Source: Octopus vulgaris
Lineage: Eukaryota
DNA: 64,000 nucleotides
Direction: 5' to 3'
NCBI GenBank assembly: GCA_951406725.2
Contig: OX597837.1
Coordinates: 20,956,001 to 21,020,000, forward strand
Part shown: in pieces, positions 2,387 through 61,711 of the stretch
Numbering within the stretch: position 1 is the stretch's first letter
How the letters are laid out: every line of letters starts with the position of its first letter
Translations under genes and position numbers: made by a program
Notes under the pieces: generated by a model
Databases searched by the model: none
The model's input: the letters and a program-made list of their open reading frames with translations, nothing else
Told to the model about the DNA's origin: nothing

Positions 2387-2521
2387 ATAAATCGTCTAAA
2401 GACCGTCTACGACAGACTCTACAGGAGATTCGTGAGCAAGATGGAAACATTAGACAATTCGATGGGTGCGAATGAGAGACAATCACAACAGGAAGTCCAA
2501 AACATCTTAGATACTCTAGGG
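2387..2521 (+). CDS. Gene A (CEP63/DEUP1-like paralog) internal exon, INRLKTVYDRLYRRFVSKM...QNILDTLG
   Basis: tttcag acceptor, gt donor at 2522 (gtacta, weak), 135 nt, phase 0/0; aligns with gene B exon 50256-50399. Confidence 0.8.
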
Positions 2522-2537
2522 GTACTAGCTGTTGCTA

Positions 2538-2710
2538 TCATCATCATCATCACCATCATCATCATCATCATCATCATCACCATCATCATCATCATCATAA
2601 TCATCATCACCACCACCACCATCATCATCATCATCATCATCATCATCATCATCATCATCATCATCATCATCATCATCATCATCATCATCATCACCATCAT
2701 CATTATTATC
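2538..2710. repeat. (ATC)n microsatellite
   Basis: direct reading. Confidence 0.95.
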
Positions 2711-4094
2711 ATTATTTTTATTTTTGTTGTTGTTAAGGTGGCGAACTGGCAGAAACGTTAGCACGCCGGGCGAAATGCTTAGCGGTATTTCGTCTGCCGT
2801 TACGTTCTGAGTTCAAATACCGCCGCGGTCGACTTTGCCTTTCATCCTTCCGGGATAGATAAATTAAGTACCAGTTACGCACTGGGGTCGATGTAATCGA
2901 CTTCATCCCTTTGTCTGTCCTTGTTTGTCCTCTCTGTGGGTAGTAAAGAAATAGGTTCAGATTCCGCCGGAGTCGATTAAATAAGTAATCGATTTAACCC
3001 TTCCCCTAGATTTGAGGCCTTGTGCTTCCAATAGAAAGGATTATTGTTGTTGTTGTTGTTGTTGTTTTACTTCTCTAAATGTTTGATCTGTTTTTTTCTG
3101 GTAGATTATATGAGAGCGGACAGTTCTCTTTTCCTCACATAATAACCTTTGATACTTCGTTGTTAATTATCGCGGGAGACATTCAACATCCAAGTACCAA
3201 TCTCAAAATCCTAGCTGTCCCCAGAAAAGCAGTTTTGGGGGTTTGCCCTGCTCTCATGTCAATTCAGATTTCTCGATCTTGGAAGTTAGTACCCCGAGTG
3301 CCCCTAAAACTACTGGAATGACACACACTCTCCTCATAGTCCACATTCTTACAATTTCATCATTTAGTAATCTGTACTTTTCAATCTTTACTATTTCTTT
3401 GTCATTTATGCGTACATAAATTATTAATTCCTTCCTTTTCATTATATGAACGACAATAACGCAAATAATGAAGGTTCCAGCAAAGGAATTAATTTTGGAA
3501 ATATATAAACATTGAAGCGATGGAAAGAGAGAAAGAGAGAGACAGTGGGGAGAGAAAGTAGTAAGACATTAAAAAATGTTTTACAGGCGTAGGAGTGGCT
3601 GTGTGATAAGTAGCTTGCTTACCAACCACATGGTTCCGGGTTCAGTCCGACTGCGTGGCACCTTAGACAAGGGTCTTCTACTATAGCCTCAGGCCGACCA
3701 AAGCCTTGTGGGTGGATTTGGTAGACGGAAACTGAAAGAAGCCCGTCGTATATATGTATATATATATATATATGTATGTGTGTGTATATATGTTTGATAA
3801 TCGATGCTGGTGTGTTTGCGTCCCCGTAACTTAGCGGTTCGGCAAAAGAGAATAAGTACTGGGCTTACAAAGAATAAGTCCTGGGGTCGATTTGCTCGAC
3901 AAAAGGCGGTGCTCCAGCATGGCCGCAGTCAAATGACTGAAAAATAAGTGAATTAAAATGAATCATTGAGTTAAAAGAGACTTGATTAAAAACACATTAA
4001 AATGGAAGTTTTTGAAAAGTTTCTAGACAATGTAGAATTTAAATACTTTCATATAGTAAGCTACTTTCTCCATTATAGTATAGATCATTATTAT

Positions 4095-5330
4095 CAATGT
4101 CCCCAGAAAAGCAGGTTTTGGGGCTTGCTCTACTCTCATGTCAATTCAGATTTCTCGAAATTGGTTGTTAGTGCTCCGAGTGCCCCTTCACCTACTAGAA
4201 TGACACACACTCTCCTCATAGTCCACATTCTTGTAATTTCGTCTTTCAGTAGTCTGTACTTTTCAATCTTTATTAGTTCTTTGTCACTTATGCGTACATC
4301 TTCAGGTATTGCAATATCTATGATTTGGGATTCCTTTTCTTCCCTTATCTACCATAACAATATCTGGTCTCCGAGCATCAATTAGGGAGTCAGGCTGGAT
4401 TGTAAAATCCCACAGTCTCTTATATTCTTTGTTCTCGGTGACTTATTCTGGTTCATATTTGTACCGTTTCCGTGCTCTAGTACTCTTTTCTGTACGTTAT
4501 ATATATTTGTTAGCCCTTGTCTTTTTGTTATGTATTTGTCTTTTTTATCATACCTAATGCGCCTCTTACGATAGGAATTGTTTCTGTTTTTTGACTCTTC
4601 AGTCGAGTTACCTCTATTTACAGGTTTTTGTATTTTGAAAGTTTCTTTTAGAGAAACGTTGTCATCTGTTGGTATTGATACATCAATTAAAAAGCATTTC
4701 TTTTTTTTGGTAATCTCTGACAACTATATCCGGCCTATTGGCCTTAATTTCTCTATCTGTGTGTATTGGCATATCCCAGAGTATGGTTGCTTTCTCATTT
4801 TCTCTGACCTTTTTAGGTGTGTGCCTATACCATCATTTTTCTGTTGTTATTCTATAGTGTTGGCATAGCTACAAGTGTATATAGGTCCCAACTTTGTGGT
4901 ATCTGTGAATAAATCCATTCTTAGGCAGCACTGGGAAGCCTGAAACAATATGGTTTATTGTTTCTTGTCCATCTCCATATATTCTGCAGTTACTTGTTAA
5001 GTTTCTTTTCATTATATGTTTTTGATAATTTCTGGTGGGGAGGCTTTGGTCTTGTGCTGCAAATTAAAAATCCTTCAGTCTCTGCTTTGAGTCTTGAGCT
5101 TCTCACCCATTGTTGGGATTTTGCTTTGTCCATTCATTTTGCCTTTAGTTTAACCCAGTATTTGCCACGAAGGGGCTTTTCTTGCCATCGTTTTACCATG
5201 ATCCGTTGCTGTTCCCGTTTTAGTTTGGATTTCAGTTGTTTTACAGCTTTTGTTGTTTCTTCTTTTTCTTCATAGTTGTTAGGTACTATGACTTCTTTTT
5301 TGTATTTGTCAGCTTCCTTAAAGACAGATT
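4095..5330 (-). mobile_element. R4/Dong-like LINE fragments
   Basis: minus-strand RPDIV/FLIDVSIPTD endonuclease region; next to (ATT)/(ATC) repeats; related fragment at 3190-3440. Confidence 0.75.
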
Positions 5331-5518
5331 ATTATTATTATTATTATTAATATTTTTATTACCATCATCATCATCATCATCATCATCATCATCATCATCA
5401 TCATCATCATCATCATCATTATCATCATCATCAATATTATTATTATTATTATTATTATTATTATTATTATTATTATTATTATTATTATTATTATTATTAT
5501 TATTATTATTAAATATAG

Positions 5519-5623
5519 GAATGTGAACACCAACTGAGTATTTCCCAAGAGCATAAAGATACCCTCGAAGAAGAAATGCTTTGTTTTGATGCTGAATATA
5601 AGGATTTACGCGAAAACGAAATG
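5519..5623 (+). CDS. Gene A exon, ECEHQLSISQEHKDTLEEEMLCFDAEYKDLRENEM
   Basis: tag acceptor after (ATT)n, gtaaat donor, 105 nt, phase 0/0; same length as gene B exon 50914-51018. Confidence 0.8.
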
Positions 5624-59667: not shown

Positions 59668-59810
59668 AAGGAGCAAAAATCTTTGAAGAAAAAACAGTCC
59701 AGCCAGGAACATGAATGGGAGAAGCAAGATAACGAAATGGAGATGGAAGTAACTAATTTCAGGAAAAATATGATTAAAAAGCTTAAAAATGTATGGAAAG
59801 AAAAGGCAAG
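59668..59810 (+). CDS. Gene B exon, KEQKSLKKKQSSQEHEWEKQDNEMEMEVTNFRKNMIKKLKNVWKEKA
   Basis: cgttag / gtgagt, 143 nt, phase 0/2; NAGNAG acceptor (tag AAG GAG). Confidence 0.85.
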
Positions 59811-60403
59811 GTGAGTAGCATTTTGACTGTTTCCATTCAAGTAAATTCCAAACCTTTTACTCCGGCAGCTTCCAACCTTTCGATTGTGTCATAGTTCAAA
59901 TTGGTTCCCATAAACAAACTCTTTATTTGTAAATTATTTGATAAAGCGTAAAATGTATTTAGAACTCCACTATATTTATAAATGCAAGCATGGCTCGCTT
60001 CCTAGCCACATCGTTTTGGGTTCAGTTCCACTGCATACCACCATGGGCATGCATAGTCCTCTACCATAGCCCTGAGCCAACCAAAGACTTGTGAGTAGAT
60101 TTGCTATACAGAAATTGAAAGAAGTCAGTCATATATACATGCGTGTATGTATATATATATATATATATATATATATATATATATATGTATGTATGTATGT
60201 ATGTATGTATGTATGTATGTATGTATGTATGTATGTATGTATATATATATATATATATATATATATATATATATATATATATATATATATATATATATAT
60301 ATATATATATATGCGCGTATGCGTATATGTAAGTATTCGTATGTTGTGTATATATATATATATATATATATATATATTTGTATTTATGTACTATTTTGTG
60401 TGT

Positions 60404-60461
60404 ATTCCACTGATGAGGCAAAGCATTTATTATGTAAAGCCAGAAATCCGGGATCTGGAAT
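60404..60461 (+). ncRNA. Hammerhead ribozyme motif
   Basis: attcca CTGATGA ggc..gcc(a) GAAA tccggga TC tggaat. Confidence 0.65.
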
Positions 60462-60833
60462 TATCCAATAATTTTTTGCAAGTTTATTTTGTCTCTTTGT
60501 CTTCTCTCCTTAATGTGGTTCTAGAGTTTAGCTTTGTCTGCTATATCTATCATGGTGGTATCTTTTTAGATACCCTTAATTATAATTTCAATAATAATTA
60601 TTACCTATGAGGTTTTTATTCCCATGCTAGCCACTTGATATGATCGGTATTTTAAATAATGATCTTATCCTTATTTATATAAATTTATATATATGTATAT
60701 AATTTAGAGAAAACCCACTATTAAGCAATTCAATAAAGAAAGATGTTATTCACACCATATAGAAAACATATACTATAAAATAAAACCTTATTTTAAATCA
60801 ATAAAGTACAATAAATAGTAAATAGTAGTAAAA

Positions 60834-60950
60834 AGACTACGCACGTTTCATGGCTATATTTTCAAATAAATAATAATAAAATCAATTCGATTCAAAATTA
60901 AATCGAACTAAAATTAATTCTATTCAAAAATATAGTCACTCATCAGGTCT
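60834..60950 (-). ncRNA. Minimal type I hammerhead ribozyme motif
   Basis: minus strand: agac CTGATGA gtgactatattt..aaatatagccat GAAA cgtgcg TA gtct. Confidence 0.75.
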
Positions 60951-61560
60951 AAGGTAATAAATAATAAAAAATAAAAAGTAATAATAATAGAATAAATGTA
61001 CTTATCTTAACTTATACTAATTATCAAATAAATATATGAAAAATACGTGTATTAACTATAAATAATCGAAAAGCATTTAACAATATTTCTTAAAATAAAA
61101 ATATAACTTATCTTGTCTAAGGATTTTCAGTAACTACAATTTAAACGTAAAACGTCAAACTTAGCGTTTATAAGAAATATAAGAAATATTTAGTCTATAT
61201 TACATAATTAGAATAAGTTGAAAATCATATCGAATAGGTTGTAATTTTTGTTTATTATGTACTAACGAATTTAAGGAGATATTATTAACTCTCTTCCCCA
61301 CCCACTCCTGCATACATACATGACCGTCTTCTTTCAGCTTCTGTCAATCAAATCCACTCGCAAGGCCTTCATTGGCCCTCTGCTATTGTGGAAGACACTT
61401 GTCCAAGATACTACACAATAGGACTGAACCTAGAACCATGTGGTTGGGAAGCAAACTTTCTACCACACAGCCACATCTGCATCTAATTGAGAATTTCTAT
61501 ACTTTTTTTCTCATGAGACATTTTTTTAACCATATTCTGTGTTCTTACTCTTCTTGACAG

Positions 61561-61711
61561 GGAGTATGACGAGCAAATAGCGGAGATAGAAGCAAATCTG
61601 AAAGAAGAAGAGCAGAAAACTAAAAACAAGATCACATGTTTCGAAGAAAAGATAGGAGCAACACATTGCCTGCATGACAATCTTTATGACCAAATAAAAG
61701 CATTTCAGTAA
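61561..61711 (+). CDS. Gene B last coding exon, (R)EYDEQIAEIEANLKEEEQKTKNKITCFEEKIGATHCLHDNLYDQIKAFQ*
   Basis: ttgacag acceptor; in-frame TAA at 61709-61711; possible donor (aag/gtagct) at 61721. Total CDS 1566 nt, 521 aa. Confidence 0.8.

Follow-up and report, generated by a model that had tools for sequence, protein, structure and literature searches.

Deup1 is the textbook duplicate of CEP63, and the locus described here raises the question of whether octopuses have duplicated the same gene and, if so, whether their copies took the path of Deup1. The stretch of DNA analysed, hereafter the window, comprises 64,000 nucleotides of Octopus vulgaris (contig OX597837.1, positions 20,956,001 to 21,020,000), and positions below are those of the whole window unless they are prefixed G000:C24, C24, C2 or L. 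An initial annotation had interpreted two genes lying here, A and B, as a tandem, strongly diverged pair of the CEP63/DEUP1 family, derived from an independent, lineage-specific expansion of CEP63 and convergent with Deup1. We found the tandem arrangement as described, but the pair is in fact a trio, A, B and C, accompanied by a distant parent-like copy, D. CEP63 has indeed expanded in octopods, apparently undescribed until now, giving paralogs that are truncated and evolve fast, and A, B and C are, with high confidence, functional paralogs of this kind; as analogues of Deup1 they probably do not qualify.

Homology and structure of genes A and B

All seven exons listed for each gene were found, with AG/GT ends and with phases that agree between A and B. 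Exon lengths are identical in 4 of the 7 pairs in the window and in 7 of the 12 over the whole genes, and equal modulo 3 in all 12; an exact agreement of 4 in 7 was reached in none of 200,000 random draws. The peptides, reported to be low in identity, share 23% of their residues (109/474), and their in-window alignment scores 191, beating all 1,500 controls from three types of shuffle, 500 each (maxima 130 for residue, 143 for heptad-position and 138 for heptad-block shuffles). Acceptor flanks agree at 63% when the exons compared are homologous (n=9) and at 38% when they are not (n=66). A non-coding 5' element of 235 nt is 76% identical between the two genes, with no third full copy found in the 464 kb examined. 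The exons are the following.

G000:C24:20945411-20954078, plus strand: gene A exons 1-6, upstream of the window
2387..2521, plus strand: gene A exon 7, 135 nt (B counterpart 144 nt), junctions in common with O. sinensis P0016
5519..5623, plus strand: gene A exon 8, 105 nt
8136..8260, plus strand: gene A exon 9, 125 nt
11522..11657, plus strand: gene A exon 10, 136 nt
13034..13156, plus strand: gene A exon 11, 123 nt
16412..16554, plus strand: gene A exon 12, 143 nt
21827..22112, plus strand: gene A last coding exon, stop at 22110-22112 unless the weak donor after 21992 is used
35104..35338, plus strand: gene B non-coding 5' element, matched at 76% identity by one that lies upstream of A
38037..38095, plus strand: gene B ATG exon, 59 nt, homologous at the DNA level to the exons that open the coding sequence in A, C and D
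39433..39625, plus strand: gene B exon 2, 193 nt, encoding the N-terminal helix of CEP63 and its predicted CEP57-binding hydrophobic core
43578..43673, plus strand: gene B 96-nt repeat exon, first of four
45656..45751, plus strand: gene B 96-nt repeat exon, second of four
46539..46634, plus strand: gene B 96-nt repeat exon, third of four
48663..48758, plus strand: gene B 96-nt repeat exon, fourth of four
50256..50399, plus strand: gene B exon 7, 144 nt
50914..51018, plus strand: gene B exon 8, 105 nt
54144..54268, plus strand: gene B exon 9, 125 nt
56189..56327, plus strand: gene B exon 10, 139 nt
58076..58198, plus strand: gene B exon 11, 123 nt
59668..59810, plus strand: gene B exon 12, 143 nt
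61561..61711, plus strand: gene B last coding exon, including the stop codon

Gene B is an intact frame of 13 exons and 521 aa from 38037 to 61711, with zero internal stops, and its protein stops short of the region matching the acidic linker and terminal helix of D. The exons first proposed for it hold, and the ATG exon and the four 96-nt exons have to be added to them; the 5' element is likely a promoter or an untranslated first exon. Four sets of presumed-RNA contigs over 43500-50450 gave mostly repeat coverage and one unspliced, low-depth contig on exon 7, and none of the joints listed there (15 of 60) falls on B exon borders, a result that weighs neither for nor against expression. For gene A, the first exon of model P0003 was dropped in favour of the one at C24:20945411, which shares homology with the remaining ATG exons and is matched by O. 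bimaculoides P0014. At the other end, a last exon of 162 nt is less likely than one of 166 nt ending at 21992 or one running on to the stop at 22110. When the donor is not used, the frame reads through a CT microsatellite to that stop, and O. sinensis P0016 terminates within this same exon.

CEP63 copies in the genome and their phylogeny

A genome search with the CEP63 N-terminal exon recovered at least four copies: A, B and, beyond the window, two others.

C24:21027198-21040728: gene C, third tandem copy, 7 kb past the window
C24:39.670-39.685 Mb, minus strand: copy D, parent-like, 18.7 Mb from the array

Copy D, 52% identical to the Argonauta 'CEP63-like' protein P0005, has the 96-nt exon only once and carries both an acidic linker and a terminal helix. 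The PF17045 profile (curated cut-off 33 bits) gave five matches over the genome, and only exon 2 of D exceeds the cut-off (33.5); of the other four, judged by reading, two are a simple repeat, one resembles a filament exon and one a rootletin exon. Among whole proteins, P0005, the Argonauta ortholog of D, scores 40.7, while the B-type P0002 and P0001 (26.3 and 22.1) and the C-type P0004 (20.3) remain below the cut-off, and Pfam over 18 single exons returned no CEP63 match. Because the Pfam scores of the copies fall below the cut-off, the descent of A, B and C from CEP63, proposed earlier for A and B and upheld here, is based on homology to D, exon lengths and phases, flanking DNA and the tree.

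Trees were built under LG+F+G4 from 16 rows, none of them a vertebrate sequence, with extra repeats and C-termini removed and with P0007, P0008 and P0016-P0018 left out. The copies nest inside a cephalopod CEP63 clade supported at 100/100, and A-D form with two Argonauta proteins a subclade (96.8/95 over 146 columns, 92.9/95 over 382 columns) whose sister is P0006. This octopod placement agrees with the independent, lineage-specific expansion that had been proposed. The branching order within the subclade is not settled by the tree, and the sisterhood of A and B is poorly supported by the protein trees (77/72 and 3/61). The duplications are older than the split between O. vulgaris and O. bimaculoides, and their order relative to the argonaut split is not fixed by the tree.

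Loss of the C-terminal helix

The C-terminal CEP152-binding helix, recognised by homology in D, is missing from the frames of A, B and C. A profile of the D/P0005 terminal helix, searched over 15,085 six-frame segments and models, picks out, besides D and P0005 themselves, a single segment lying 4 kb past C, at 43.8 bits; the next best score is 8.0. Three 3' exons behind C (L015-L016, 85797-88731 from the window start) are relics of the 3' exons of D, with stops or a frameshift, the terminal-helix exon being the frameshifted one. Relics of this kind were not found behind A or B, and no terminal-helix exon was found downstream of the last coding exon of A. Since C carries dead exons of D type, the array appears to have started from a full-length gene whose tail was later lost from the proteins.

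The tail of D is 42% identical to that of P0006, which in turn can be aligned with the oyster helix recognised by PF25771. The D tail also agrees in spacing with the interface residues of the human protein (PMC6411776), a fit not shared by A, B, C, P0002 or P0004. PF25771 had zero matches over the genome, and PDB searches with the terminal helix returned no CEP63 chain.

The N-terminal core and CEP57

Human CEP63 links CEP57, through its N-terminus, and CEP152, through its C-terminus (PMC13720213, PMC6411776). Using the CEP57-binding positions taken from PDB 9I7Q (PMC13720213), we found at the equivalents of human L25/L28/M29/I32 the residues L,L,V,I in D, V,C,L,L in B, L,L,I,I in C and L,V,L,V in A, so that all four positions are hydrophobic in every copy, a likeness of pattern only.

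The sole PF14073 match in the genome lies at C2:6900358-6900615, in the CEP57-like gene. The phase-1 exon upstream of it, which has no Pfam match itself, we take to be the CEP63-docking exon from its position and resemblance. This presumed docking exon is repeated (minus strand, C2:6901388-6932191, L052-L055), with copies about 65% identical in DNA: those at 6931156, 6914514, 6907307 and 6901562 are open, the one at 6922328 has a stop and the one at 6911491 is partial. The CEP57 ATG exon is also duplicated (66% at 6902329, with weak traces at two further places), copies of it standing ahead of some docking-exon copies, and all these copies may be alternative N-termini or debris. It is conceivable, though we think it unlikely, that octopods diversified both halves of the CEP57-CEP63 joint, with three rods of different lengths, all blind to CEP152, pairing with alternative CEP57 N-terminal modules; if this were true, a matched-pair code would build non-duplicating scaffolds of the centriole, each specific to a cell type, a course opposite to that taken by Deup1.

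These data bear on whether the copies are still associated with centrioles, which we consider probable. The strongest alternative is that they left the centriole and became new structural coiled-coil proteins, for example of sperm tail fibres or of the centriolar rootlet. Their very long branches and altered rod lengths would suit such a change, and a fibrous sheath, outer dense fibres and an endonuclear channel resembling a rootlet are described in O. vulgaris sperm (PMC11753710). In the protein atlas, P0002 had generic coiled coils as its neighbours, ODF2-like clusters among them, which is no more than a lead. The hydrophobic CEP57-core positions of all copies, together with the multiplication of the presumed CEP57 docking exon, argue for a retained centriolar link, and we regard a departure from the centriole as rather doubtful.

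Rate of divergence and changes in rod length

Orthologs of the three copies lie on one O. bimaculoides contig as P0014 (A), P0002 (B) and P0004 (C), and O. sinensis P0016 corresponds to A. Identity to O. bimaculoides is 64% for A (112/175), 70% for B (181/260) and 62% for C (182/292); it is 96% for D (102/106), a control that covers only the last 106 C-terminal residues and not the region compared in A-C. A, B and C diverge faster than D also in the N-terminal tree, where the distance to P0006 is 2.29 for A, 2.04 for B, 1.67 for C and 0.93 for D. Nei-Gojobori pN/pS is 0.85-0.93 among the copies (A-B 0.90, 95% interval 0.78-1.04) and 0.60-0.72 against D, with dS of 1.0-1.4; a ratio near 0.9 fits relaxed constraint too, and dS near 1 makes it imprecise.

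Changes by whole exons accompany this divergence. A and B have four exons of 96-99 nt each, C and D one, and O. bimaculoides P0002 carries the same four 96-nt repeats in register with B (66-84% identity). The tree of the repeats has supports of 58 or below and leaves their order unsettled; from copy number, we infer a single quadruplication shared by A and B. The coiled-coil rise is 0.15 nm per residue, at which the quadrupled 32-residue exon adds about 14 nm of rod. Gene C has lost the 105-nt exon (35 residues) and ends by reading through the donor of the 123-nt exon, an end that P0004 shares. In Argonauta hians, P0011 (303 aa) is a diverged CEP63 paralog with 32-residue periodicity, whose placement relative to A/B is not settled by the tree.

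Could the copies simply be decaying under relaxed selection, with no distinct function? The A-B ratio given above would allow it, as would the weak 3' end of A, the short O. bimaculoides models and the similarity of the dead exons of C to D (63-70%), equal to that of its coding exons (53-69%). However, the frames are open over 13, 13 and 7 exons in A, B and C, with canonical splice sites, whereas a neutral simulation at 0.5 substitutions per site predicts about 21 stops per frame and left 0 of 500 open, from which we conclude that the frames are under maintenance. Moreover, the 293-aa length and the read-through end of C recur in O. bimaculoides, all 6 of its junctions being shared. We hold decay to be improbable.

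Comparison with Deup1 and other centrosome duplicates

The N-terminal coils of Deup1 self-assemble and its C-terminus recruits CEP152-PLK4 (PMC7938805), the recruitment of CEP152 by its C-terminal region being described also in PMC6210342. Like vertebrate Deup1/CCDC67, A-C are lineage-specific CEP63 duplicates that retain N-terminal coils of the self-assembling type; unlike it, they are of independent octopod origin and have no C-terminal CEP152-binding region (for this feature of Deup1, PMC7938805). They branch within octopods, after the bivalve/brachiopod split, in the tree without a vertebrate row, and are not Deup1 orthologs by that placement. Moreover, the SMCO4-like gene, whose human counterpart adjoins DEUP1, is here a neighbour of D and not of A-C.

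The convergence with Deup1 that had been proposed is thus unlikely, as Deup1 acts through a terminal helix of which A, B and C have no homolog and which D retains. It would require the copies, perhaps in joint assemblies with D, to nucleate deuterosome-like condensates from which multiciliated cells amplify their centrioles. The copies keep and lengthen the self-assembling coils, a fragment which in Deup1 slightly accumulates Cep152 (PMC7938805), and some invertebrates are reported to have deuterosome-like structures (PMC4926731). Besides the missing CEP152-recruiting part, depletion of the single planarian CEP63/Deup1 ortholog left ciliary locomotion unaffected (PMC4799839) and loss of Deup1 itself is reported to have no effect on amplification (PMC10701303), so that we consider such a role very improbable. 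The invertebrate adaptation of the CEP63/Deup1 scaffold has been flagged as open (PMC4926731), and the expansion of A-C ran opposite to that of Deup1, dropping the CEP152-side helix and altering rod length by whole exons.

That A, B and C are parts of one internally repeated or read-through gene, as database model P0001 might suggest by fusing B with part of C, is scarcely credible, given that every copy starts from a separate ATG exon, a homolog of the one in D, that the 5' element stands at both A and B, and that O. bimaculoides has three separate models, each with its own start. Model P0001 leaves B just before its stop (61707-61720), continues into the second exon of C and leaves out all but one of the four 96-nt exons; it is probably a prediction artefact.

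With CEP63 itself (human, oyster P0012, Lingula P0015; PF17045, PF25771) A-C share the N-terminal CEP57-core helix, the long coiled coil and common descent; unlike it, they evolve fast, fall short of the PF17045 cut-off, differ in rod length through gain and loss of exons, and have no terminal helix. Further parallels are Drosophila Spd-2B, Asl-B/C and a partial Cnn copy, which evolve fast and are in some cases re-duplicated or N-terminal-only beside a conserved parent (10.1101/2021.10.27.466145). Spd-2B differs in being nearly full length, with a tested spermatocyte role, and these are other genes in another phylum. No cephalopod CEP63 paralogs were found in full-text literature outside subscription journals and bioRxiv supplements, and none of the 6 supplement files of PMC6341066 names the A-D genes.

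Proposed history and function

A full-length copy of CEP63 may have left the SMCO4-side locus and then duplicated in tandem, after which the 3' exons would have fallen out of the reading frames of the array; the ancestor of A/B would have quadrupled its 32-residue coil exon and C lost its 35-residue exon. Keeping the CEP57-side module without the CEP152 side, A-C could take up CEP57 sites, or enter assemblies with D, yet license no new centrioles, acting as CEP57-anchored or D-heterodimerising spacers or as dampers of centriole duplication, while D would perform the ordinary duplication. They are likely specialised structural scaffolds, perhaps of sperm cells or of the male germline. Germline bias, to which we give an even chance, is suggested by the resemblance of fast divergence beside a conserved parent to duplicates of the Spd-2B type, the fast-evolving Spd-2B being spermatocyte-specific (10.1101/2021.10.27.466145). 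Taken as a whole, the reading of A, B and C as fast-evolving tandem CEP63 copies, likely CEP57-docked rods without CEP152-PLK4 and most likely of the male germline, seems to us evenly poised.

Several points weigh against it, besides the span of the D control and the pN/pS values already discussed. The germline step is an analogy to other centrosome duplicates. In O. bimaculoides, A and B are represented by short models of 192 and 285 aa, and for this reason the last six exons of B have no second-species model. A-type proteins gave zero CEP63 profile matches. The terminal helix of D had no PF25771 score and no match with a four-sequence non-cephalopod helix profile, and its CEP152 role is deduced from homology. 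As for CEP152 in the genome, PF25770 gave one chance-like match and PF25769 none, which does not establish absence.

If the reading holds, A-C would be naturally occurring variants that separate the functions of the CEP57-CEP63-CEP152 axis, and candidate members of the fast-evolving reproductive proteins of the octopus; present database models show them as uncharacterised, fused or mis-named proteins.

Neighbouring genes and other observations

A DUF4519 gene, presumably SMCO4, lies 20 kb upstream of D, and the large downstream neighbour of D presumably resembles CEP295; a BRCC36 exon follows on the opposite strand. This neighbourhood (L041:4277-4453, minus strand, and L033-L036) recalls the human DEUP1-SMCO4-CEP295 cluster and suggests that, of the two human genes, it is DEUP1 and not CEP63 that occupies the ancestral locus. 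On human chromosome 11 about 0.2 Mb separates DEUP1 from SMCO4 (PMC13371021); in sheep, a single 0.5-Mb region holds SMCO4 and CEP295 (PMC8472390). No upstream neighbour of the A-B-C array was identified among 49 frames scanned in 100 kb, a CH_2 match upstream of A looking spurious on reading; the downstream neighbour is a RabGAP-TBC gene (L017:9223-9558, minus strand).

Within gene B, the intronic, repeat-like segment 51635-51712 is matched by the end of O. bimaculoides P0002 (81% over 26 aa) and is a possible repeat-derived alternative last exon. Between A and B, a direct repeat of about 550 nt, at 31556 and 33692, surrounds about 1.6 kb of non-coding DNA, a unit that resembles a non-autonomous LTR (long terminal repeat) element.

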